Notes: generated from the sequence alone by a model not told the origin. Shown: positions 32,764-48,854, counted from the first letter of the stretch. The stretch is 64,000 bases of DNA from Gammaproteobacteria bacterium (GCA_031404015.1 JANNGT010000027.1:920-64919); one strand, 5' to 3'. Numbers and translations: made by a program.

Positions 32764-33282
32764 ATGCGCACTGGAATCGCCGTAGCTTTTACAATCGGCT
32801 TCGTCACGTTCGCGGCCTCATCGCACGCGGCCGAGTCGACTCTGCCAGCGGTCGTCGCTACCCACTTGAAGGACGTCGCCGCGGAATGCGTGGAAGTCGG
32901 GGGCAAGGCACTCACTGACGCAGCGATTACGCGTGCAGACCTGACCGGTGACGGCAAGGAGGACTACGTTTTCGATGTCGGCTCGATCCAGTGCGACGGC
33001 GCTGCCAGCATCTATGGCGATCGCAGCAAGAAAGTGACGGTGTACGTCGGTGACGGCGCGGGAGGCGCCGTGGAGGCGTTCAGCGATATGTCGTACGGGA
33101 TGCGATTCGAAGGCAAGGGGATCGCAACGAAGGTCTGGTTGACGGTGATGGGCGAGGAATGCGGCAAGAAGCGGGCCGTCGACTTCGCCAGTGAGAAATT
33201 CTGCGACCGCTCCCTCGTATGGCAAGGCGCAACAAAAAAATTCGAATTCGCGCCGATATCGACCGTCAAGATGATCGAGTAG
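32764..33282 (+). CDS. Secreted hypothetical protein
   Basis: Signal peptide MRTGIAVAFTIGFVTFAASSHA, then about 150 aa with four Cys. No family recognised. Confidence 0.55.
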   Translation: MRTGIAVAFTIGFVTFAASSHAAESTLPAVVATHLKDVAAECVEVGGKALTDAAITRADLTGDGKEDYVFDVGSIQCDGAASIYGDRSKKVTVYVGDGAGGAVEAFSDMSYGMRFEGKGIATKVWLTVMGEECGKKRAVDFASEKFCDRSLVWQGATKKFEFAPISTVKMIE

Positions 33283-36127
33283 TAGATCTCTTCTCGCGCG
33301 TGGGTGAAGCCAGCCAACGCACGGCGACGCCGTCCAGTTCCTGCTTCTCGACGAGCGCATCCGCAATGCGAACCAGCACCAGGCGGCGGGCGCGCAGGAA
33401 CGTCACGGCATTGCGATAGGAGTTGCGCAGCAGCGCATCGACCTGCCTGGCCTGCGCCGGCGTGGGTGCCGACGTCCAATGCAGGTTCCCGTCGGAACCG
33501 AAGCCGGACGTGCAGACGACGCTGGTGGCGACCCGCGTGGCGACGGCGAGATCGCTGGTCGGGCCGCCCCCGCAATTCAGGCTGATGTCGTCCTTGCCGT
33601 AGACCACCTCCTCCGCCGCGCGACCCGCAAGGATCGTGCGCATGCGCTCCAGTACCGCCACCCGGGTCATGACGCCGCTTTCGGGCGGCATGGAGGCAGT
33701 GAAGCCGAGGGAGCCGTCCATGCGCGGGATGATCGAAACGAAAGTGAGTTCGGGCGCACCATCCGTGCCGCCGAGCGCCGAAAGCGCGTGGCCTGCCTCA
33801 TGCACGGCGACGCGACGCATGTCTTCGGCGGTTAGGCGTTGCGCGGTGTCCGCTCGACGCGGCCGGCGCGTCACCTCCGCGAGCAGGTCCGCCTGGCTGA
33901 TCTTGCGGCCGTCCTTGCGCGCACGCCGCGCCGCGCCGCGCACGAAGAACTCGACGTCGGCGCCGGTGAGGCCATACGCAAGCTGCGCAAGTCCATTTAC
34001 TCGCACCTCGCGGGCTACGTTGTTCAGCTTGCGGTGCGGCTGCAGGTAGTGCGTAAAGATCTGTTCGAGCGCTGCGACGTTGGGACGCGGCAACTGGATC
34101 ACCTGGTCCAGTCGGCCGGCACGGCGCAGTGCCGGATCAATTTTCTCGAGGTAGTTGGTCGCACCGATCACGATGACGGGCTCGTTCGCGTCGAGCCCCT
34201 GGATCTGCTCGAGCAGCGCATTCACCACCTCGGTCTGGTAAACACCGTTGGAGCCGGAGAACAATTCCCGGTTGCCAATGCTGTCGATCTCGTCGATGAA
34301 GACGATCGCGGGCGCATAGCGCCGGGCCTCTGCAAACGTCTCGCGCATCGCCCGGAGGTGGAGATCGAGCCCGCCCGACGATTGCCACTGCGTCGCGCTG
34401 GCGTGGATGAATTTCACGTCGCACGCATGCGCGATGGCACGTGCCAGGGTCGTCTTGCCGGTGCCCGGCGCGCCGACCAGCAACAGGCCGCGGTCCACCG
34501 CCTGCCAGGGGATGCGCCCTGCGCGCGCCGCGGCGATGTCGGCGATGAGATCTTCCGCCACCTGGCGCGCTTCACCAAGACCGTGCAGGTCCTTGAGCGC
34601 CAGCGAGTCGGCGGCCGACACCTGGGCGATGCGCGCCTGGCAGCGCTCCCGCAGGTAATCCAGCGACTCCGACGCATTCAGCTTGAGCCGCAGTGGCGCG
34701 TGAAAGTCCGAGTGCACCACGTAACGCACCCAATCCGCACCGCCGGCCCGCCAACGTGGCGGGGGCTGTGTGCCGATCACCTGGCGGAAAATCTCGGCGA
34801 ACAGCCGCGTATCGATGCGCGGCAACGTCAGGATCAGGTCCGTGGCGCGACGAAGGGGCTCGGGCACGTCCGCGCGTCGCGCGCACCCGATGAACACTGG
34901 TGGTGCACCGACCGCCAGCTGGTGCGACGTCCACTCCGCGTCCCACAGGGCTCGGTAAGCATGAAACGAAATCACGTGCAGTGCGGGCGCGGGCACTCGG
35001 GTATCGACCCAGCACCGTGTGTCGTCTCCCGTCACGGCGGCAGCGTGTCGGGTGTGTTCTTCGGGAAACCCGGCACGTGTCGGATCGAGCAGGCCCACCA
35101 CGATGTCTTCCACGAAGGCGATATCCGATTCGATCACAATGATCGGCGCGGACTCCTGCACAAAACGCGCGAGCTGGCCGATCGGGCCGGCGGGATGCGA
35201 CTGTGTGTTGAAGCGCTGCAGCAGACGATGGCCAAGGGCCCCGCGAATCGCGTCGACCAGCAGGACGGAAACGAACGCTTCCGTGACCGACAGATCGCTA
35301 CCGGCCTTGGCTTCGGTGTCCGTTTCGGCGAGCCGCGCCCTCGCCTCGCGCGCAATCTCGATGATGTCTTTCTTCGCGGCAGGCGGAACGACCTCGTCGT
35401 CTTCCGGTGGCGGCTGGAGGGTCGGGCACTTCGGCGTGGTAACCACGCCGAGCGCAGCCAAGGGCGTGTCGTCGACCATTTCGATCTCGCCATCGGGCGT
35501 GACCAGGAAGGTCGACGCATACAGCACGTCCGCATACGCCACCGTCGCTTGAACGCGGAACCTGCCGTCCGTCGCCGCAATTTCCTGCTGCAGAGGTGTC
35601 CAGAGCTGCCGCAGCATCGCGATCTGACCCGCAGCGGCCGCGTCGGCGCCTGGCGCCACCTCGAGCCCGATTTCCTCCGGTGCTTCGATCACCACGAACG
35701 CGCCATGCTCGCCACGGATCGCAAAGAGAAAGAATCGCACGTAGTCGAGTAGCGTAACGTCGGTCAGCGCCAGCGATTCCAAGGCATTGACGAGATGCAC
35801 TGGCGTCGACTGGCCGTTGAGCATGTGCGTGCCGGCCGGGCCGTGCAGAAGCAACGCCCGATCGACGCCGGCCACGCCCAGCATCCGGACATCGACGAGA
35901 TCGTGATTCGAATAAAACGGCAGCCGCGCAAACCGAGCATGCAACAGGCTAGCGCTGGCAAACGCAGTTGGCCGGGCCATGGCCAGTTCCTTCAGGACGT
36001 CCTCAGCGACGTCGGCCTGGCACGGTTCCCAGGAGATGCTCGGCCCCAACGTGCGTTCCAACACCGCATCTCCGCTCAGGTTGTTGGTCCCGACAGTAGC
36101 GGTTGGCAGGGCGGCGCAGCAAGACAT
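33266..36127 (-). CDS. Soluble FtsH-like AAA+ ATPase / M41 zinc metalloprotease with large N-terminal region of unknown function
   Basis: Walker A LLVGAPGTGKTTLA, Walker B IVFIDEIDS, GATNYLEKIDPALRRAGRLD, the zinc motif VHEAGHAL, GRAAEE and SDLAVAT. No TM helices seen. Start is the ATG at 36127 (alternative 35980). The ORF upstream of that, to 36661, looks non-coding. Confidence 0.8.
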   Translation of the reverse strand: MSCCAALPTATVGTNNLSGDAVLERTLGPSISWEPCQADVAEDVLKELAMARPTAFASASLLHARFARLPFYSNHDLVDVRMLGVAGVDRALLLHGPAGTHMLNGQSTPVHLVNALESLALTDVTLLDYVRFFLFAIRGEHGAFVVIEAPEEIGLEVAPGADAAAAGQIAMLRQLWTPLQQEIAATDGRFRVQATVAYADVLYASTFLVTPDGEIEMVDDTPLAALGVVTTPKCPTLQPPPEDDEVVPPAAKKDIIEIAREARARLAETDTEAKAGSDLSVTEAFVSVLLVDAIRGALGHRLLQRFNTQSHPAGPIGQLARFVQESAPIIVIESDIAFVEDIVVGLLDPTRAGFPEEHTRHAAAVTGDDTRCWVDTRVPAPALHVISFHAYRALWDAEWTSHQLAVGAPPVFIGCARRADVPEPLRRATDLILTLPRIDTRLFAEIFRQVIGTQPPPRWRAGGADWVRYVVHSDFHAPLRLKLNASESLDYLRERCQARIAQVSAADSLALKDLHGLGEARQVAEDLIADIAAARAGRIPWQAVDRGLLLVGAPGTGKTTLARAIAHACDVKFIHASATQWQSSGGLDLHLRAMRETFAEARRYAPAIVFIDEIDSIGNRELFSGSNGVYQTEVVNALLEQIQGLDANEPVIVIGATNYLEKIDPALRRAGRLDQVIQLPRPNVAALEQIFTHYLQPHRKLNNVAREVRVNGLAQLAYGLTGADVEFFVRGAARRARKDGRKISQADLLAEVTRRPRRADTAQRLTAEDMRRVAVHEAGHALSALGGTDGAPELTFVSIIPRMDGSLGFTASMPPESGVMTRVAVLERMRTILAGRAAEEVVYGKDDISLNCGGGPTSDLAVATRVATSVVCTSGFGSDGNLHWTSAPTPAQARQVDALLRNSYRNAVTFLRARRLVLVRIADALVEKQELDGVAVRWLASPTREKRSTTRSS

Positions 36128-36800: not shown

Positions 36801-37346
36801 TCAGCGTGCGATAAAAGTCGTTGCGCCCCGCACGTCGCCGGGCCTGAGCTCCCAAGTCACACCTTGGATCGACTTCGAACTGCGCACCGTCGTGTAGCGA
36901 CGGTTGTGCCAATCGAGATCGAAGATGCGCTGCCAGCTTGTCGCAATCCGGCGCCGGTCCGGGCGTTCCTCAAACCTTCTTTCATCGGCCAGCGACGTCG
37001 GCAGATACCAGCCGTTCAGCACGTAATGCCATAGTTCGAAGTCAGAACGCAGCAGTCGCACGTCGTCCAGTTCGAGTTCGATACGTACGCCGCGGGTGCC
37101 CGCGGGCAGGTGACCTCGAGCCCTCAGATCGGGCTTTGACCGCTCCGCTCCCCGCCACTGGCACCAGACCCAGATGGGCGCCTGCCCGGCGTTTGCAGGC
37201 GGCCCCAGGCGAGCGCGCATCACGTCGGACATCCATTGGTACGCGCGAGCCCAATCGTGCGGGGCGTTGCTCGCGCGTGCGCGCCAGGTCTGCCCGGATA
37301 GAAGCGCCGCCAGCACGTCGGGAGTCTGGATCGTCCATGCACGCAT
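36801..37346 (-). CDS. DUF3841 family protein (tentative)
   Basis: MRAWTIQTPDVLAALLSG...PIWVWCQW...ELELDDVRLLRSDFELWHYVLNGWYL resembles DUF3841. ATG at 37346 preferred over GTG at 37379. Confidence 0.55.
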   Translation of the reverse strand: MRAWTIQTPDVLAALLSGQTWRARASNAPHDWARAYQWMSDVMRARLGPPANAGQAPIWVWCQWRGAERSKPDLRARGHLPAGTRGVRIELELDDVRLLRSDFELWHYVLNGWYLPTSLADERRFEERPDRRRIATSWQRIFDLDWHNRRYTTVRSSKSIQGVTWELRPGDVRGATTFIAR

Positions 37347-37459
37347 CGTTCTTTGGACCGGCACACCGAGGGTGCTCACAAGCTAGCACGCAGCCTGTGG
37401 CGCTGTCGTTTCGCTGCCTGTTCTGAGATGCTGCCGATCGGCCAGGCAAGAGGCGGGAC

Positions 37460-40294
37460 ATGGTCGACTTACAGCACCGCTCGACGAGACGCATCAAGCC
37501 GCTGCAAGCCCTGCTCCTGGTCGGGATGACGCTGGCATGGCTAGCGCCTGTGCAGGCCGCGACCTGGATCGAACAGGCGCAGGCCGACCTGACGTGCACG
37601 GGACAGGCTGATGCATCGGAGCGGCTCGCCCTCGATGCCCCATGGCTGCCAACGCCCGTCGACGCGAAGAATGCCACCGCCTATTTTCGCGGCAAACCCC
37701 AGAACGCGCGGCAGGCAAAATTCCGTCACCTCACGCTGCTCGCCGCCGTGGGTTGGTGGGCCGATCTCGTCAACGACCAGACGCTGCGACAGGACGTTTA
37801 CTTGACGATTGGCTCGATGGCGGATCGCTATGCGACCGCGAGCGATGGCTTGCTGTTCACGCAGATCGCGCGCTGTGCGCGCACTCACATGATCAGCACG
37901 CAGGTCGAACTCGAACGGCCACAGGCAGCCGCAGAACTGGCGCGGCAGCTGGCGATGCTCTATCCGTCCGCGGCCCCTGCCCACTCTGTTGAGGACTGGC
38001 CACTGATTCTTGCGTTGCGTGAGCTGCGACTGGAGCCCGACGCCCGAGCAGGCATTGAAGAACTCACGGCTCGCTCGACTCGTTACGGCGAAAGCGCGGT
38101 CGGTGCGGGGCAAGCGGATCGTGCGAGTCGATGGCTGGGGGCTGCGGCTGCCGGAACTCTGGCGCTTGGGGCAGCAGACCGCGCCCAGCAGCTCGCGCTG
38201 CGATCAATAGCCGTGACCGGCAAGTCAAGCGATGCGAATGCGGTGTGGCGGGCGTTTCCAACCGTCTACGATGCTGCGGCGAAGCTCGGTGGCGCGGTCG
38301 ACGTCCCCACCCTTGGCTCAATGCTGTCGTCGCCGACACCGCAGGGATCGCTTAACGATCACCAGGCTGTGTTCGATTCGATTTTGCGTTTGTCGAAAGT
38401 CGCCGAAGCGAAGCAGCAGTTCGACGACATGGCCCGCCTGCAGCAGGTCGCTGCCCACGAACTCGCGCAGCAACGCGGCCTTGAGCGCTACCCGATGCCT
38501 TTCTACCGTTACGCGCTCGAACAATTGGCGCTCGGGCGCGACGCGGACCTCGGCACTCTCTCTCGGCGCGATCCTGCCTTTGCGTCGCGCACGCTCGCGA
38601 TCTACACGGGACTGTACGACAAGCTGCTGGCACAGGCTCAGACGCAATTCGTTGCGGATGCACGCGAGCAATTGTTCTTCCAGTACAAGATCGACAACAG
38701 CCTGCATGCGCTTGCCGAACTTTCGTCGGCGATGCCTCGCTCGGCGCCAGAGATCACAGACACTGCATTTCGGCTGGCGCAGCTGCGGTCTTACGGTCGG
38801 CTGACGCTCGCTACCCTGGCGGGGGAACTATCGCGCACCCGCCTCGATCCGCAAACCAGATTCAGCGTCGAACGCTTTTTCTCGCTGGCGACGCAGACCT
38901 CCGTCTGGTTGCGCAAGTTGCTGGGCAAGCTGCAGGTAGCGGCGGAAACTCCCCTGCCCGATGGCGAGAAACTTTGGACGGCCTTCTTCACGCTCGACGT
39001 CTTCTACAACGAAACGAGTCGCGAGTTCGCACGCTACACAGAGTTTGTCCGGCAGCAAGCGCCAGCCATCGCAGAGCTCGCCACACCGCATCCGCTGGCG
39101 CTTCGCGACTTCCAGCGCCGGCTGCGTCCCGGCGAGGCGATCGTCGCCACGCTCGTGACGCCGCTCGACCTTTACGTCTGGGCGGTTACGCCGGACAAGG
39201 CCGTCATGACCCGGCAGCGTGTGACCGAGCGCGAGCTGCGTGCAAAAATTCAGCGTCTGCGTGCCGGGCTTACGCCGGGCAGCGGTGGCGCGCTGCCGCC
39301 TTTCGATGCGGCGGCGGCTCACGAACTGTACCGACTGGTGTTTGAGCCGGTCGCGAAGACACTGCAGGGCGTCACGGAAGTCAGCTGGTACGGCCACGGG
39401 CCGCTCGGCGCCGTGCCGCCGGCCGTGCTCGTCAGTGCACCGCCGACCAAGCCGCTGCTGCGCACGCCGGCCGAGTTCAAACAGACCGCATTCCTCGTCG
39501 ACCGCTATGCGTTTGCAGCGCTCGCGGACCTGTCGCTGTTCGCCTGGCATCGCGACAAGTCACAGCCGCCACGCAGCCAGCAACGTTTCCTTGGGGTGGG
39601 TGCGCCATTGCTGACGTCCGCTGAGGTCGCGGGCGGTCCGCGTTCTCGGTCGTATGAACTTGCGGGGGGTCTCGACGGCAAGGCGCTGTCCGCATTGCCC
39701 AAGCTCGCCGAAGCGATCGACGAAATGCGCGGGCTCGCCGGCATCGTCGGTGAAGCCAATGCGACGCTGTGGCTGGGTCCCGATGCGGACGAGCAACGGT
39801 TCGTCGGCGACGCGCTGCGTGGATACGGACTCATCGCGCTGGCCACGCACGGCTTCCTGCCCGGCGAAGTGCGGGACGTGCCCGAGCCTTCGCTGATGCT
39901 GGCCCTGGCGCCCGATCGCCAGGATCGATTCGACGGACTGCTGACGAGCCGTGAGATCGCGTTGCTGCAACTCGACGCGCCGCTGGTGATCCTGTCGGCC
40001 TGCAACACGGCCAGTGCGGACGGAAGGCCGCGCGGCGAGACGTTTACTGGTCTGACGCAGGCATTTTTCAATGCCGGGGCGCGTTCACTGATGGTAAGCC
40101 ACTGGCCCGTCATGTCGGGCGCGGCGGTGCAACTATCGGTGAGCACAATTGAGCGCTCGCAAACGCCAAACGCAACGCTGTCGAAGAGCCTGCAGCAGGC
40201 GATGCAGGCCGCTCGCAAGGCAGGCGCGGCCAGCGCGATCGAGGCCCACCCGTCGTTCTGGGGGCCGTTCGTAATCGTGGGCGACGGTCGCTAG
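37460..40294 (+). CDS. Secreted CHAT-domain (caspase-like) protease with long helical-repeat N-terminal region
   Basis: Sec signal LLLVGMTLAWLAPVQA. C-terminal CHAT domain with His (LIALATHGF) and Cys (LVILSACNTA) dyad and the SLMVSHWPV tail motif. 944 aa. Confidence 0.85.
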   Translation: MVDLQHRSTRRIKPLQALLLVGMTLAWLAPVQAATWIEQAQADLTCTGQADASERLALDAPWLPTPVDAKNATAYFRGKPQNARQAKFRHLTLLAAVGWWADLVNDQTLRQDVYLTIGSMADRYATASDGLLFTQIARCARTHMISTQVELERPQAAAELARQLAMLYPSAAPAHSVEDWPLILALRELRLEPDARAGIEELTARSTRYGESAVGAGQADRASRWLGAAAAGTLALGAADRAQQLALRSIAVTGKSSDANAVWRAFPTVYDAAAKLGGAVDVPTLGSMLSSPTPQGSLNDHQAVFDSILRLSKVAEAKQQFDDMARLQQVAAHELAQQRGLERYPMPFYRYALEQLALGRDADLGTLSRRDPAFASRTLAIYTGLYDKLLAQAQTQFVADAREQLFFQYKIDNSLHALAELSSAMPRSAPEITDTAFRLAQLRSYGRLTLATLAGELSRTRLDPQTRFSVERFFSLATQTSVWLRKLLGKLQVAAETPLPDGEKLWTAFFTLDVFYNETSREFARYTEFVRQQAPAIAELATPHPLALRDFQRRLRPGEAIVATLVTPLDLYVWAVTPDKAVMTRQRVTERELRAKIQRLRAGLTPGSGGALPPFDAAAAHELYRLVFEPVAKTLQGVTEVSWYGHGPLGAVPPAVLVSAPPTKPLLRTPAEFKQTAFLVDRYAFAALADLSLFAWHRDKSQPPRSQQRFLGVGAPLLTSAEVAGGPRSRSYELAGGLDGKALSALPKLAEAIDEMRGLAGIVGEANATLWLGPDADEQRFVGDALRGYGLIALATHGFLPGEVRDVPEPSLMLALAPDRQDRFDGLLTSREIALLQLDAPLVILSACNTASADGRPRGETFTGLTQAFFNAGARSLMVSHWPVMSGAAVQLSVSTIERSQTPNATLSKSLQQAMQAARKAGAASAIEAHPSFWGPFVIVGDGR

Positions 40295-41193
40295 CGGGGC
40301 GACGGGCCCCAGAGCACCCAGTCGCCGATCGAACCGGCGAGTGGATCGCCAGCACGTATCAGCGGCCGCAAGCGTTCGAAACTCTCCAGCTTCCAGCGGC
40401 CGTCATCGAGACGCGCGAGCCACACGGCCTGAGCGGTGACCCCGAGACTGGTCGAGTCGGTCGCGAGTTCCGACGGCACCACGGGACCGGCCGCAACAGC
40501 CTCGAGCGTGCCTGCATAGCCGCGGTTGGCTGCGTCGGTGACCGTGATGGTGTACTGGCCAGGGTCGAGGGACACGTCGTCGAGGCGCACTTGCCAACCT
40601 TCGATCGATTCGCGGTAGACGAGACTGTCGCGCCCTGACAGCACGCGCACTTCGAAAGGCGGACAGCCACCGCGCCAGGCGAGCGGCAGGTCGCGCTGGC
40701 CCGAGACGATGCGGGCACCCGCCACCAGGATCGGGACGGCAATCGCCGGCACGGCGCTGCCGTCCTTGCCGCAAGACTCGCCGCCGCGCGAGGCAGCCGT
40801 GCCGTCGAGTCGATACTCGTCATCCAACAGGATCGGGAGCAAGGACTGGAAGATTACAGCCAACTTGCCAAGCGGCTGCGCATCGGGGATGACGAAAGCG
40901 CCGGGCCCCTTGAGGTTGAGTGTCTCGTTGCTCGCGAGCTGGACGGTCACCGCAGCGCCCGCCGGCAACGCCAGACGATCGCCAGCCATGACGACGGTGC
41001 CGATTTGCACCTGGACCTTCTCGCCCTTTGGCAATCGCGTCAGCGTATGTCGCGCCGCCGCAGGCCGGTAGTTGCCGATCACGCCGACGCCGGCATCGCT
41101 GGCAGCCTCTGCGCCGTGCAGGAGCAGTGACGGGAGTCCCGCGGCAAGCAGGGCGGCCAAGGCCAAGGTGCAGCGGTATCGCTTGAGTCCCAC
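40291..41193 (-). CDS. Secreted FecR-domain protein with extra C-terminal domain
   Basis: Signal peptide LALAALLAAGLPSLLLHGAEA. FecR-like VQIGTVVMAGDRLALPAGAAVTVQLASNETLNLKGPGAF. GTG at 41193 lies 1 nt after the CHASE2 stop, with AAGGAG upstream. Confidence 0.7.
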   Translation of the reverse strand: MGLKRYRCTLALAALLAAGLPSLLLHGAEAASDAGVGVIGNYRPAAARHTLTRLPKGEKVQVQIGTVVMAGDRLALPAGAAVTVQLASNETLNLKGPGAFVIPDAQPLGKLAVIFQSLLPILLDDEYRLDGTAASRGGESCGKDGSAVPAIAVPILVAGARIVSGQRDLPLAWRGGCPPFEVRVLSGRDSLVYRESIEGWQVRLDDVSLDPGQYTITVTDAANRGYAGTLEAVAAGPVVPSELATDSTSLGVTAQAVWLARLDDGRWKLESFERLRPLIRAGDPLAGSIGDWVLWGPSPR

Positions 41194-41194
41194 G

Positions 41195-42634
41195 TCAGTC
41201 TCCTTGCCCACCAGGTGATTTGTGCTCGCGGCGCCAGCCCGCACCTAGCGCACGCCACCAGCCGGCGGGACCAGCGGGAAATCGTGGGCGCCGCTCGTTC
41301 AGTTCCTCGACGGACTTGCCCGCCGTTGCCAATGCCTTGTACGCAATCGACAGCAAGATAGCCGCTTCGAGCGCGTCGAACACGAGCAGGCTGTCGAACA
41401 GCGCAAGCAGCACGGCGACGATCATCAGAACGCCGGTCGTGATCGCAATGACTGCGCCGAACCCGCGCAGCCACCACTCCACGAGCACGAACAGCGCGAA
41501 CAGCAGCAGCGCGACGACACGATAGGCCAGGTTCGCCGACCAACCGTGTCTCTCGGCCTGCAGCGGTGTGTAACGCACGGTGTTGGCCAGCAACTCGACG
41601 CCCGGCAGCACTCCGCTCGGTGTCATCCAGAAATCGCCGGAGCTCGAATGGGTCGCGCCGATGAAGACGACGCGGTCGCGGAACAAGCGCGCGTCGTCTC
41701 GGGCGATCTCCGGATCTAGCAGCAGCGTCGCCGATATAGCTTGCGCTTCCGTTCGCGGAGCGGCCCGCGCCTCGCCGGTCAGACGCGGCCCGATCAACAG
41801 ACGTTGCGCATTGCCATCGGGCGATTCCGCGACCCCGCACGACGACTGTGACGCAGCGGGCGGCACGACGCGGTCCAGTCCGGGCAATGGGGTCGCCAAA
41901 TTGGCTGCCAGGCTCATAGCCATGGAGGGCAGCCACTGCAACCCGCCTGCCGAACAGATTGGCAGCCAGCGTTGCCAGGTGCGTACCGCCCCGCCGCCGC
42001 CCGTTTCGAAACTGGCGTGCGCCCACGCAAGGTGCGCGTTCTTTGCGACTACCGCATCGAACGGGCTTGCGGTTGCACGTCGGGTGCCGTCCTGCGCCGT
42101 CTCGACACGCTTCGGCAGGACGATCAGCACCGGTCCCGCGTATAGGGCAAGAAACTCATGCAGCGCGAGCGAGCCTGCGTCGGCGCTGGCAGCCGACAGC
42201 TCGCCGCCAGACAAGTCGATGTCCACAACGACAGCGCTGGGGGCCGCCTGCGTTACCACTTGCAGCAACCGCACCAATTGATCGCGGGGCGTGATCGGCG
42301 GCGCACCCCAGGCCCGGTGGGTCTCGGCGTCGATGTCGACAATGGTCACCGGCACGGTCCGGTCCGACTCGAACCAGCCCCGCGAGAGCGCGCGCAGCGC
42401 GGTGTCGGGATTGAAGGGAGCGTCAGCCAGCCAATCGGCCACGCGGTTGTGTTGCACGGTGCCCAGCAAAGCGAAAGTGCCAGCGATCAACGCTGCCAGC
42501 GTGGTGGCCCGGATGAAGTCACTGCGCGGGTCCGTGTCTATGCCCAGCGTGACTCGCACGCGACGCACGAGCCGCGACATAAGGGTCGCTGATCTTTCTT
42601 TTGCGCGGCGCTTACCCCGTGTCTCGACGTTCAT
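41195..42634 (-). CDS. Stand-alone CHASE2 sensor-domain membrane protein without recognisable output domain
   Basis: N-terminal TM, then VTIVDIDAETH...PRDQLVRLL...VVVDIDL...VVFIGATHSSSGDFWMTPSGVLPGVELLANTV is a CHASE2 pattern. Three or four C-terminal TM helices and a short tail follow. Confidence 0.8.
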   Translation of the reverse strand: MNVETRGKRRAKERSATLMSRLVRRVRVTLGIDTDPRSDFIRATTLAALIAGTFALLGTVQHNRVADWLADAPFNPDTALRALSRGWFESDRTVPVTIVDIDAETHRAWGAPPITPRDQLVRLLQVVTQAAPSAVVVDIDLSGGELSAASADAGSLALHEFLALYAGPVLIVLPKRVETAQDGTRRATASPFDAVVAKNAHLAWAHASFETGGGGAVRTWQRWLPICSAGGLQWLPSMAMSLAANLATPLPGLDRVVPPAASQSSCGVAESPDGNAQRLLIGPRLTGEARAAPRTEAQAISATLLLDPEIARDDARLFRDRVVFIGATHSSSGDFWMTPSGVLPGVELLANTVRYTPLQAERHGWSANLAYRVVALLLFALFVLVEWWLRGFGAVIAITTGVLMIVAVLLALFDSLLVFDALEAAILLSIAYKALATAGKSVEELNERRPRFPAGPAGWWRALGAGWRREHKSPGGQGD

Positions 42635-42704: not shown

Positions 42705-43226
42705 ATGGCCATCCAGGCACAGATCAGTCATGAGCCCATCGGCAGGGTGCTGCGAGATCGTTGGCTTTGGCTGGCAACCATAGCCTGCGCGGCTACAGGC
42801 GCGGTCATTGGACTCTGGTTCGGCCCATCGATCGGCGAGTCCGCACTGGTTGGCGCTGTTGCCATCGGGATCATGGGACTCGCGCCGGGTTTCGTAGCGG
42901 GCCTGATGGCGGCCCTGATTCGCCGCCGCTCGCGTTCACGCCGCGCTGAGCAGGCAGCGCGCGAGCGATTCGTGGCGTCGCTTGACGAACAGTCTTCGCC
43001 CGATACTCGACACTCTATCGACCCCGCCCGTCCGCGCGTGCTGATCATCGATCAGTCCATGGCTACGCCTGGCGCACTCGACGCCGCGGTGATCGCCAGA
43101 CTGCGAGTAGCCATCGAAGATCGTGTGGAACTCGGGGCCGCGGAATCGGAGCTGCGACACCACGGATTCGAGAAGTGCGCGTTCCGCATCAACGGCGAAA
43201 CGATTGTGGAACGCAGTATCAATTGA
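42705..43226 (+). CDS. Hypothetical membrane-anchored protein
   Basis: Two N-terminal TM helices, an RRRSRSRR stop-transfer segment and a soluble C-terminal domain of about 90 aa. No family recognised. Confidence 0.5.
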   Translation: MAIQAQISHEPIGRVLRDRWLWLATIACAATGAVIGLWFGPSIGESALVGAVAIGIMGLAPGFVAGLMAALIRRRSRSRRAEQAARERFVASLDEQSSPDTRHSIDPARPRVLIIDQSMATPGALDAAVIARLRVAIEDRVELGAAESELRHHGFEKCAFRINGETIVERSIN

Positions 43227-46336: not shown

Positions 46337-46864
46337 ATGTCAACCTCCACGACAGAGTTCGAGCGTCTCGCAGTGCCGCTCGAGCGCGACGTTTTCCTCC
46401 GCAGTTTAATCCGCGAACTGTCCGGCACGCTCCAGGACGTGATCGGTCTCGACGAAGCGGCCGGCTTTATCAGCATCGTCGGGCAGCGCATTGGTGAGAG
46501 CATCAACGAGTCGTACAAGCTGGCGCTGAACACCAGTGTCCTTGACAGACACCAGGTCGCCAACGTCCTGGTCGACCTGAAGCGTCGCATCCAGGGCAGC
46601 TTCTACATCATCGAAGAAACGGACGAGAAGATCGTGTTCGGCAACCGGAATTGCCCATTTGCAGAAAAGGTGATCGGGCGCCCCTCCATGTGCATGATGA
46701 CTTCAAACGTGTTCGGGGTCATCGCGGCGGAGAATCTGGGTCACGCCAAGGTCGTTCTCAACGAGACGATTGCCCAAGGCTCGGCGTCGTGCAGGGTTAC
46801 GCTTTACCTGAAAGACTCGGCGGAGTCGGCCTCAATGGCTGGCCGCGAATACTTTCAGAGCTGA
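46337..46864 (+). CDS. Methanogen-output-domain-1 (MOD1)-like / V4R-like small protein
   Basis: [35 protein letters not shown]...[18 protein letters not shown]...[33 protein letters not shown] matches the MOD1 family as remembered. Confidence 0.65.
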
Positions 46865-46871
46865 GCGACCT

Positions 46872-48854
46872 GTGTCCCGGTTGGCCGAGAACTTCGGCGA
46901 TCTAGCCGATTGTTTCCCAGAGCCGATATTGCTGCTGGAGAGCGGCGGCCTTGTATGCGCCGCCAATCGTGCTGCGCTTACGCTTATTGCAACCCTGACT
47001 CCGAAGCAAACCGCGTTGGAGGAGTTGGTCTGCGATCTTCCCGAAACCGTCCATCTGTTCCTGCGTGCCTGTTTGCGGTCGGCCGAGCCCCTGCCTGGGG
47101 CCCTTACCTTCAAAATGCGCAACGGCGGGACCGAGCGCTACCGTTGCCAGGGATCGGCCGTCGCACAAGCAGAATCCAGCGGGCGCCCGCGGATGGTTCT
47201 GCGGTTCCTGCTGAAGGACGCTTCGTCGAGCCGATTCGTCTCGCTCAACCAGCAAGTCGAGCATCTGCGTCGCGAAATGGCCCGCAGGCATCACGCGGAG
47301 CGGACAGCGGAGCAACAGCGTCAGATCTGGCAGGTCACGTTATCCAGCATTGGCGACGGGGTGATCGCGACCGACACCGAGGGGCGCATTACCTTCATGA
47401 ATGCCGTTGCGGAATCCCTGACGGGCCGCCACCAGAGCGAGTGTCAGGGCAAGCCTTTGGAGTGCGCATTCGTCATTCACAACGAGGACACCGGGGAGCC
47501 GCAAGAGAATCCCGTGCAGGACGTCCTGCGCTCCGGAAATGTGGTCGGCCTGGCAAACCACACGGTGCTTATCCGTCCAGACGGTACGCAGCTCCCCATC
47601 GACGACAGCGCCGCTCCGATTCGCGACGCGGCCGGGAACCTGTTCGGCGTCGTTCTCGTATTTCACGAGGTGGCGGAAAGTCGTCGGTTGCAGCGTGAGC
47701 TAGTGCGCCAGGCCGAGTCGCTGCACGAAGCCACGCGCCGCAAGGACGAGTTTCTCGCCGTGCTTGCCCACGAGCTGCGAAATCCTCTGGCCCCATTGCG
47801 AAACGGGCTCGCCCTCCTTCGTCAGGCAAGCACGGCCGACGGTGCAATGTCTGGTGTACTCATGATGATGGAGCGTCAGCTTGTCCACATGGTGCGTCTC
47901 GTCAACGATCTGATGGACCTGAACCGGATCGCGCATGGCATGACCGAGCTGAAGAAAGCGCCGGTGTTCATACGTGACGTCCTGGAGCGTAGCATCGAAG
48001 CCGTACGCTCCGATCTCGACGCCCGCGGCCATTCGCTCAGCGTCAGTGGCAGCGACGACACCGTGGTACTGGGGGATGCGGATCGATTGACGCAGGTGCT
48101 GTCGAACCTGCTGACCAACGGCATCAAGTATTCTGATGATGGCTCCAGCATCGCGCTCGCGATCGAAAAGACGGGGGATCAAGTGTCGATCCACGTGACC
48201 GACACAGGCATCGGCATTCCCAGCAACCAGCTGGAGCAAGTGTTCGAGATGTTCTCGCAGGTGCGCGGACACCAGTCGCGCTCGGAAGGCGGACTGGGAA
48301 TCGGCCTTGCGGTCGCGCGCGGTCTCATGAAACAGCATGGTGGAACGCTCAGCGTCCGCAGCGAAGGGCCGGGCCTCGGCAGCGTTTTTACGATGTCTCT
48401 TCCGGTACTGAGACGTTTGGATGTACCGCAACCCGCGGCGGGGGTCGACAGTGAGCAGCACTCCCCTGGACCACCGTTGAGGGTTGTCGTGGCGGAAGAC
48501 AATGTCGACTCTGCAGAGTCCCTCTGTGCGGTGCTGCAGTTGTCGGGACACGACGTGAGGATTGCGAACAACGGTCTGCGAGCCGTGGAACTCGCAGAAG
48601 AGTTTGACCCGCATGTCGTCTTCATGGATATCGGAATGCCAGAGATGGACGGCATCGAGGCAACGAAGCGGATTCGACAGGCGCCGGCCGGCGACCGCCA
48701 CTTCGTGGTCGCTCTTACGGGTTGGGGTCAACGACAGGATCGGGAGCGCACCCGATCGGCCGGTGTCGATCGACACGTGGTAAAGCCAATCAGCCCTGAG
48801 GAATTAACGGAAATCCTCGGGCTCGTGAGTTCGCGGGTGTACGAAGCGCCCTGA
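46872..48854 (+). CDS. Hybrid sensor histidine kinase/response regulator (unknown N-domain, PAS, HisKA, HATPase, REC)
   Basis: PAS (GVIATDTEGRITFMN), H-box FLAVLAHELRNPL, NLLTNGIKYS, GLGIGLAVARGL and a receiver VVVAEDN...MDIGMPEMDG...VKP. GTG start lies 8 nt after the MOD1 stop. Confidence 0.88.
   Translation: MSRLAENFGDLADCFPEPILLLESGGLVCAANRAALTLIATLTPKQTALEELVCDLPETVHLFLRACLRSAEPLPGALTFKMRNGGTERYRCQGSAVAQAESSGRPRMVLRFLLKDASSSRFVSLNQQVEHLRREMARRHHAERTAEQQRQIWQVTLSSIGDGVIATDTEGRITFMNAVAESLTGRHQSECQGKPLECAFVIHNEDTGEPQENPVQDVLRSGNVVGLANHTVLIRPDGTQLPIDDSAAPIRDAAGNLFGVVLVFHEVAESRRLQRELVRQAESLHEATRRKDEFLAVLAHELRNPLAPLRNGLALLRQASTADGAMSGVLMMMERQLVHMVRLVNDLMDLNRIAHGMTELKKAPVFIRDVLERSIEAVRSDLDARGHSLSVSGSDDTVVLGDADRLTQVLSNLLTNGIKYSDDGSSIALAIEKTGDQVSIHVTDTGIGIPSNQLEQVFEMFSQVRGHQSRSEGGLGIGLAVARGLMKQHGGTLSVRSEGPGLGSVFTMSLPVLRRLDVPQPAAGVDSEQHSPGPPLRVVVAEDNVDSAESLCAVLQLSGHDVRIANNGLRAVELAEEFDPHVVFMDIGMPEMDGIEATKRIRQAPAGDRHFVVALTGWGQRQDRERTRSAGVDRHVVKPISPEELTEILGLVSSRVYEAP

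Follow-up and report, generated by a model that had tools for sequence, protein, structure and literature searches.

A CHAT-family protease gene linked to genes for an output-less CHASE2 membrane protein and an undescribed immunoglobulin-like protein: a candidate envelope proteolytic module

Positions 37460-42634 of a 64,000-nucleotide stretch of a gammaproteobacterial assembly (GCA_031404015.1, JANNGT010000027.1:920-64919; the whole stretch is referred to as the window) hold three closely packed genes, which code for a CHAT-family protease, a CHASE2 membrane protein and a third protein that we call G3. An initial annotation, drawn up from the nucleotide sequence, had proposed that an exported CHAT protein, a CHASE2 protein lacking an output and a secreted partner act together as a module of the envelope, and we followed up this proposal computationally. 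The genes (aa, amino acid residues) are:

37460-40294, plus strand: CHAT protease gene (944 aa; Pfam CHAT; the exact 944-aa product is present in NCBI)
40291-41193, minus strand: gene for G3, the periplasmic partner (300 aa; exact product present in an NCBI assembly and in Logan)
41195-42634, minus strand: gene for the CHASE2 membrane protein (479 aa), without output domain and translationally coupled to G3

Translation of G3 starts at a GTG (41193) that lies 1 nt past the CHASE2 TGA and is preceded by AAGGAG, just as annotated. The CHAT and G3 genes are convergent and their stop codons share 4 nt (CTAG, 40291-40294), an overlap that is found again in a related locus (L002, 10876-10879). As no terminator-like site was seen between the two genes, the 4-nt overlap implies that converging transcription must either collide or run into antisense. 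Around the trio, promoters, terminators and RNA families (Rfam) did not rise above background, and NCBIfam holds no model for the CHAT, CHASE2 or G3 protein of the window. Both the GC content of the trio and that of its third codon positions (GC3) equal those of the adjoining window genes, and for this reason a horizontal-transfer signal was rejected.

The arrangement is conserved well beyond the window. A scan for orthologues with one genome per species (185,579 species) returned 21 loci (L007-L027), all of them in metagenome-assembled genomes (MAGs), which are labelled Steroidobacteraceae, Woeseiaceae, Burkholderiales, Thioalkalivibrio, Gemmatimonadetes, Myxococcales or unclassified Gammaproteobacteria. 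CHASE2 is encoded directly upstream of G3 in all 21, and a convergent CHAT gene lies downstream of G3 in 18 of the 19 loci in which the contig continues (it is frameshifted in 3 of the 18). The genes on either side vary, with topA and phasin/polyhydroxyalkanoate (PHA) genes in L004 as opposed to DUF3841 and an FtsH-like gene in L002, and the retention of the same order in 21 species-level genomes with differing flanks places the arrangement beyond chance.

More distant G3 lineages (∼25-30% identity), of which eight, a small and non-random sample, were informative, show the same association in other gene orders. A caspase-fold protease is encoded immediately next to the CHASE2-G3 pair in six of these lineages and within 5 kb of it in a seventh, and none is found in the eighth. 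In L035 and L036 the genes share one strand and follow in the order CHASE2, G3 and TPR-CHAT, the last encoding 1,172 aa with a signal peptide; on plasmid pAB510a of the cultured Azospirillum sp. B510 it is CHAT (787 aa, with a lipoprotein signal and lipobox), CHASE2 and G3; and in L032/L033 a Peptidase_C14 protein with a signal peptide is encoded 5 kb from the pair. Moreover, CHASE2 and G3 are naturally fused in three representatives (P0327, P0365 and P0366), the signal-peptide segment of G3 then forming a fifth transmembrane segment, and each fusion adjoins a gene for a clan-CD protease: CHAT after P0327, Peptidase_C14 before P0365, and before P0366 a WD40-Peptidase_C14 protein (L038) that bears a signal peptide. 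The two of these protease genes that are complete overlap the fusion gene, stop codon on start codon. Wherever the N-terminus of the protease could be read, it carries an export signal (five lineages: the window family, L035, Azospirillum, the L033 C14 protein and L038). An all-against-all comparison of the loci detected no fourth gene common to the lineages; when plasmids were searched by tblastn with CHASE2 and further G3 queries, there was hardly a match outside Azospirillum, and a metagenome scan for distant G3 loci added one short locus.

In light of this synteny, of the recurrence in other gene orders and of the fusions, we conclude that the exported protease, CHASE2 and G3 are a genuine, genetically linked module, and the proposal of the initial annotation is borne out in this respect.

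The surroundings of the distant loci are diverse. In L035 (1-16861) the trio sits on a plasmid-like mobile element with TrfA, KilA-N/BstA_C, two transposases and a phage-type integrase. In L032/L033 (1-8004) the CHASE2-G3 genes stand beside an AAA_15/AAA_21 ATPase with DUF4276, an LCAT-like lipase and the Peptidase_C14 gene, which gives the locus the look of a defence island. The Azospirillum B510 trio (L037, NC_013855.1 1129060-1145752) occupies about 1,132,900-1,137,800 of a plasmid whose PLSDB entry is unannotated. It is flanked upstream by two proteins without assigned family (478 and 466 aa) and downstream by two others of this kind (354 and 273 aa), followed by a CheB methylesterase and a methyl-accepting chemotaxis protein. 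In L030, the genes that converge on the CHASE2-G3 pair code for a DUF1318/lipoprotein and for three large proteins without Pfam match (716, 596 and 385 aa), which may represent an alternative set of partners.

The CHAT protein of the window is divided as follows:

37460-37558, plus strand: Sec-type signal peptide (aa 1-33, cleaved after VQA), from orthologue comparison
37559-39313, plus strand: mature N-terminal region (aa 34-618), of helix-favouring composition and with invariant Cys46 and Cys139
39314-40285, plus strand: CHAT catalytic domain (aa 619-942), with the His797 codon at 39848-39850 and the Cys848 codon at 40001-40003

Pfam CHAT (PF12770) matches residues 619-942 with 140.5 bits against a cut-off of 24 (E=1e-40), covers profile positions 3-289 of 289 and is the sole Pfam family in the protein, which confirms the 944-aa reading frame as a CHAT gene. 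The catalytic His797 (ALATHGF) and Cys848 (ILSACNTA), which had been described as intact, are invariant in the 16 CHAT orthologues compared (47-88% identity), and in an alignment with the CHAT protein of L035 the ATHG and SACNT motifs fall on its THG and SACNT; L035 is a distant lineage for which the family assignment was verified separately with Pfam (hhalign; 34% identity over 412 columns, E=2.9e-49). In the orthologues the N-terminal ∼30-33 residues form a hydrophobic stretch of variable sequence that closes with A-x-A, and the conserved mature start TWIEQAQADLTCTG (TWIEQAQ) comes next; a variable hydrophobic N-terminus that runs through A-x-A into a conserved mature end is the pattern of a Sec signal peptide, in agreement with the annotation. 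Export through the Tat pathway is unlikely since the RR pair is not conserved in the orthologues. The protein is thus a predicted exported cysteine protease of the caspase fold (clan CD) with its catalytic dyad intact.

The 585 residues that precede the catalytic domain have no Pfam match, TPR models included, and their hhalign probability against TPR repeats is 0.8%. The protein gave weak matches to LpoP, a TPR protein (E=0.037), and to 14-3-3 (E=0.15). With no Pfam match and no detectable similarity to TPRs, the 'about 600 residues of helical repeats' that had been ascribed to the protein are unverified; the helix-favouring composition and the LpoP match are the two signs in their favour. 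Sequence kinship to the TPR-CHAT proteins of solved structure (DdvA, Craspase and separase) was likewise sought with phmmer and with an orthologue profile, and none was found.

Two parts of the CHASE2 protein concern us here:

41537-42460, minus strand: periplasmic CHASE2 domain (aa 59-366), with invariant Cys227 and Cys266
41198-41536, minus strand: three C-terminal transmembrane helices (aa 367-434) and cytoplasmic tail (aa 435-479), from hydropathy and AlphaFold2

Pfam CHASE2 (PF05226) spans residues 77-379 (74.3 bits against a cut-off of 26.3) and is the only family in this 479-aa protein. Hydropathy peaks that indicate transmembrane segments at residues 40-58, 367-385, 395-413 and 416-434, with a 45-aa tail after the last, correspond to helices 38-57, 365-388, 391-413 and 417-451 of an AlphaFold2 model (mean predicted local distance difference test score, pLDDT, 83). 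The topology is therefore the one expected for the CHASE2 family, with one transmembrane helix before and three after the extracytoplasmic domain, and the annotated composition (a periplasmic domain, transmembrane helices and a short tail) holds. Positions conserved in at least 90% of sequences number 80 of 308 in the periplasmic domain as against 0 of 84 in the cytoplasmic N-terminus and tail, so that selection acts on the periplasmic side; the transmembrane helices, too, are more conserved than the cytoplasmic tails. The model has no significant fold match in the PDB, and the idea that CHASE2 might be a pseudo-caspase relative of CHAT was rejected (hhalign probability 0.05%).

No cytoplasmic output domain (cyclase, kinase or GGDEF) is present in the window CHASE2 protein or in any of its 120 nearest homologues, all of which are 293-497 aa long with PF05226 alone. 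The protein is therefore no truncated kinase or cyclase. The same lengths contradict the view that there is no module at all, according to which the three genes adjoin by chance or the CHASE2 gene is the decayed fragment of a receptor kinase or cyclase. That view could draw on an orthologous locus without CHAT (L010) and on three MAGs, all long-read assemblies (L014, L021 and L027), in which the CHAT gene is split over several frames. It is also contradicted by the persistence of the trio among varying neighbours, in more than one gene order and in fused form, and we regard it as most improbable. The three points on which the initial annotation had staked its proposal have thus held: the genes co-occur conservatively, the catalytic residues align, and CHASE2 is no remnant of a longer gene.

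The third protein departs from that annotation. Its parts are:

41104-41193, minus strand: signal peptide (aa 1-30, ...HGAEA|A), from a hydrophobic stretch and an unconserved N-terminus
40891-41091, minus strand: first Ig-like beta-sandwich (aa 35-101), with AlphaFold2 blocks of pLDDT 77-96, mostly above 90, and DSSP strands
40744-40866, minus strand: conserved flexible linker (aa 110-150, DDEYRLxGTAASRGGExC), with the Arg136 codon at 40786-40788
40495-40716, minus strand: second Ig-like beta-sandwich (aa 160-233), which opens with the superfamily motif AW-GG-PP(F/Y)
40309-40473, minus strand: C-terminal three-helix bundle (aa 241-295), from AlphaFold2 and conservation

G3 had been taken for a FecR-domain protein, and DUF928 had been named alongside FecR. 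Both assignments fail: G3 has no Pfam match even at E≤10, and none of 48 divergent members of its superfamily matches FecR (PF04773) or DUF928 (PF06051) at E≤1. Foldseek comparison of the G3 model with the PDB returned generic immunoglobulin (Ig)/FN3 domains only, and in BFVD the one model named FecR ranked 23rd with a TM-score of ∼0.2, no better than dozens of Ig-like proteins. Neither an extracytoplasmic function (ECF) sigma factor nor a TonB-dependent transducer is encoded within ∼10 kb of the trio in the window. A profile search of 1.84 billion representatives gathered 1,010 clusters at E≤1e-3, mostly of ∼300 aa, and a Pfam match was found in none of the seven stand-alone relatives scanned. 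G3 thus belongs to an undescribed protein family without Pfam model, of about 1,000 representative clusters.

The AlphaFold2 model of G3 (pLDDT 85.8; predicted template modelling score, pTM, 0.81) comprises a signal peptide, an Ig-like sandwich, a low-confidence linker, a second Ig-like sandwich and a three-helix bundle. Although the linker contains the lowest block pLDDT of the mature protein (53-54, at aa 121-140), its conservation in the orthologous family (aa 102-159) is that of the folded domains, and its Arg136 is Arg in 87% of 118 divergent G3 representatives. In the second sandwich, W173 (99%), G175/G176 (94-97%) and P179 (96%) are conserved across the superfamily, and the helical bundle is the most conserved part of all (at least 90% conservation at 30 of 55 positions). 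Three features are superfamily-wide: AW-GG-PP(F/Y), W-LEA(Y/F) in the helical bundle, and the linker Arg. G3 also has an invariant cysteine pair (C141/C177), and the presence of such a pair in the exported part of each of the three proteins would fit periplasmic disulfides.

What the three proteins might do together is best approached from the periplasm, where the conserved parts of all three are expected to lie. We tentatively favour a three-component proteolytic module of the envelope, in which the CHAT protease acts on, or through, a CHASE2-G3 complex in the periplasm, and hold this to be plausible while somewhat short of probable. CHASE2, whose conserved part is wholly periplasmic, would be the inner-membrane anchor and sensor; exported G3 would bind it as a 1:1 co-receptor; and the Sec-exported CHAT protease would dock on the resulting complex. 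The Arg-containing flexible linker of G3 might then occupy the active site of the protease, where it would be cut or would act as a pseudo-substrate in the manner of securin. Cleavage or release would depend on something that CHASE2-G3 senses on its periplasmic face, the output being proteolysis in the envelope rather than a cytoplasmic second messenger. In favour of this reading are the gene linkage, the natural fusions, the export signals, the intact dyad, the conserved linker with its Arg, the cysteine pairs, the unconserved cytoplasmic parts of CHASE2 and the lack of a fourth shared gene. Precedents have been published in DdvA and in the CHASE2 cyclases discussed below; as to the linker Arg, separase is known to cut behind Arg (PMC11506125), and the sites of orthocaspases follow basic residues (PMC6426788).

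Several observations weigh against this reading. Downstream of G3, L010 has RecQ and no protease nearby; the CHASE2-G3 pair of L030 (2757-8359) is likewise without a recognisable protease in its neighbourhood; the linker Arg is replaced by Ser in the fusion P0366; and the distant lineages on which the recurrence is based are few and were not drawn at random. That G3 binds CHASE2, that its linker enters the protease and that there is a trigger is what we infer from the arrangement, and the presumptive nature of these contacts also counts against the reading.

A different account of the same features does without sensing. The CHAT protein would be a degradative or antagonistic exoprotease directed at foreign or nutrient proteins, G3 its constitutive inhibitor or chaperone (compare chagasin and staphostatin), and CHASE2 a membrane anchor that holds G3 in place and so shields the envelope of the producer. 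Such an arrangement would be consistent with the Ig-like sandwiches of G3 and their conserved exposed loop, with a G3 gene that is always co-encoded and translationally coupled with that of the membrane protein, with a protease that swaps family (CHAT or C14) around a constant CHASE2-G3 pair, and with the lack of an output component among the locus genes. However, in all other known cases CHASE2 is a sensor input domain and its conserved periplasmic domain would make an elaborate anchor, the trio has no linked machinery for secretion across the outer membrane, and G3 has no detected similarity to a known inhibitor family. We consider this account unlikely.

The conserved linker Arg and the CHASE2-G3 fusions could also be read in terms of a matured ligand, akin to Spätzle: CHAT would cut the G3 linker to yield a ligand or co-receptor, and the transmembrane bundle of CHASE2 would signal through an unlinked membrane protein. 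The higher conservation of the transmembrane helices relative to the cytoplasmic tails points the same way, as does the response of CHASE2 cyclases to protein signals (PMC13001267). Yet no lineage has a conserved adjoining kinase, cyclase or sigma factor, and the cytoplasmic segments of CHASE2 are unconserved, which renders a relay of this kind quite unlikely. 

The most far-reaching reading, that output-less CHASE2 and G3 form the receptor for, or the substrate of, a dedicated periplasmic caspase-fold protease, in a protease-gated cascade of signalling or execution wholly outside the cytoplasm, we consider unlikely. If it were true, a CHASE2 domain would for the first time have a defined cognate protein ligand, in G3 or in the product of cleavage at its Arg-linker, and the four-helix membrane part of CHASE2 would be the effector.

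We also considered whether the trio might be an anti-phage or suicide module, in which a perturbation of the envelope activates the protease, and the latter makes a lethal lesion of the four-helix CHASE2 protein or of some other target in the envelope (abortive infection). Searched against PADLOC-DB 2.0, CHASE2 and G3 gave no match and CHAT gave only a 13-bit BovA fragment (E=0.0066) that is not meaningful, and no relatives of the trio were found in IMG/VR or in phage genomes; membership in a known defence system was accordingly rejected. These results count against a defence role, as do the ordinary genes that flank the trio in the window and at most loci (topA, phasin, PHA synthase, SDR and DLH) and the lack of a recognisable toxic effector. 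In its favour are the patchy distribution (the orthologous family occurs in 21 of ∼185,000 species genomes), the location of one lineage (L035) on the plasmid-like element described above, together with KilA-N/BstA_C, transposase and integrase genes, that of another beside AAA_15+DUF4276 and HigB-like genes, and the action of other CHAT or caspase-fold proteases in defence (Craspase and DdvA; PMC11506125). On balance we deem such a role improbable.

Searches that paired CHAT with CHASE2 found no description of such a gene module in the PubMed Central and bioRxiv literature, where 68 of more than 7.7 million papers name CHASE2. Several known systems share parts of it. In DdvA, an anti-sigma factor, a periplasmic TPR-CHAT domain has been proposed to self-cleave a flexible linker (PMC11506125). 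Like the window protein, DdvA has a periplasmic CHAT caspase fold with a His-Cys dyad that follows a large region, helical in DdvA and putatively so in the window protein, and the linker cleavage proposed for DdvA depends on a signal. In contrast, DdvA possesses an N-terminal cytoplasmic zinc anti-sigma domain, a transmembrane helix and a cognate ECF sigma factor, whereas the window protein starts with a cleavable signal peptide, lacks an anti-sigma domain and a sigma gene in its vicinity, and is paired with CHASE2 and G3. The two are unconnected in sequence-profile searches. Separase and the type III-E Craspase (gRAMP-TPR-CHAT/Csx29) exemplify CHAT proteases that are kept inactive and switched on allosterically, separase being blocked by its pseudo-substrate securin and Craspase cutting one dedicated partner that is encoded beside it. 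Both are cytoplasmic and controlled by RNA or by the cell cycle, while the CHAT protein of the window is exported, with a two-Ig candidate partner and no nucleic-acid sensor.

The CHASE2 side of the module has its own parallels. The CHASE2 cyclases of Sinorhizobium meliloti (CyaD1/CyaD2/CyaK) respond to a signal of protein nature (PMC13001267), and in Burkholderia and Pseudomonas a LysM-FecR protein is encoded beside a CHASE2 histidine kinase (PMC5192318). These receptor cyclases and kinases share with the window the domain, the 1+3 arrangement of transmembrane helices and the adjoining gene for a secreted accessory protein, but CHASE2 receptors carry cyclase, kinase or GGDEF outputs where the window protein has none, the accessory protein G3 is not FecR, and a protease comes in as the third partner. 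In Trichodesmium erythraeum a metacaspase is fused to CHASE2, so that a caspase-fold protease and a CHASE2 part with four transmembrane helices are directly joined; the caspase domain is predicted to be cytoplasmic (PMC2853523, PMC3501461) and there would be the output of the receptor, as opposed to a separate exported protease on the CHASE2 side of the membrane, plus G3, in the window. Finally, in Nostoc punctiforme the genes of two WD40 proteins are clustered with those of a CHASE2 sensor protein and of a protein from DUF928 (PMC5587647). Its combination of a repeat protein, an apparently stand-alone CHASE2 and a small protein resembles the trio and parallels the WD40-Peptidase_C14 gene that adjoins a fusion in L038, but the small protein belongs to DUF928, a family to which G3 shows no detectable relationship. 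For the recurrence of CHAT, CHASE2 and FecR/DUF928-type genes that had been put forward in the initial annotation, the backing found was indirect, in the Nostoc cluster and in the pairing of LysM-FecR with a CHASE2 kinase; the third partner in the window is neither FecR nor DUF928. Taken together, the trio is best classed as a variation on two themes, regulated CHAT proteases and CHASE2 receptors with secreted accessory proteins, with a mechanism that we infer.

What CHASE2 domains sense is largely unexplained, the one pathway met with in the literature searched answering to a protein signal (PMC13001267), and no role has so far been explained for CHASE2 proteins without output. Bacterial CHAT proteases and orthocaspases, for their part, are numerous, and in the same literature physiological substrates are named for few of them, such as Craspase (PMC11506125) and the orthocaspase MaOC1 (PMC7935541). 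With its constant CHASE2-G3 pair and swappable exported protease (CHAT or C14), the module ties these two questions together genetically. CHASE2 gains a candidate partner among proteins, and a bacterial CHAT protease gains a candidate for its substrate or inhibitor; a cultured host is at hand in Azospirillum sp. B510, and the G3 family, with its ∼1,000 representative clusters outside Pfam, is now defined.

The trio is embedded in ordinary chromosomal genes (SDR, glutathione peroxidase, MFS-cNMP, DLH, MarR, CHRD and a hybrid kinase), with no sigma factor near it in the window. Upstream of the CHAT gene are those of an FtsH-like protease (33266-36100, minus strand) and a DUF3841 protein (36801-37379, minus strand). 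The FtsH-like protein combines AAA+ (GAPGTGKT) and M41 (HEAGH) motifs with an unassigned N-terminal region of ∼480 aa and a hydrophobic stretch near residue 507. About half of the 21 loci of the genome scan have this gene pair next to the trio; it was recorded in L002, L003, L007-L009, L011, L012 and L021 (and partially in L013), and in L012 the FtsH-like gene is on the other side of the trio and still adjacent. These neighbours are confined to a Steroidobacteraceae-like subset, and may be a lineage-specific accessory.

On the other side of the trio, a gene at 42705-43226 (plus strand) codes for a 173-aa protein with two to three hydrophobic stretches; it is divergent from CHASE2 at a distance of 70 bp, is followed by the MarR gene and is kept in the closest relatives only (80% identity in L007 and 45% in L021). 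Farther along, 46337-48854 (plus strand) holds a gene for a MetOD1 ('methanogen output domain 1') protein, which is directly followed by a PAS-HisKA-HATPase-REC hybrid histidine kinase.

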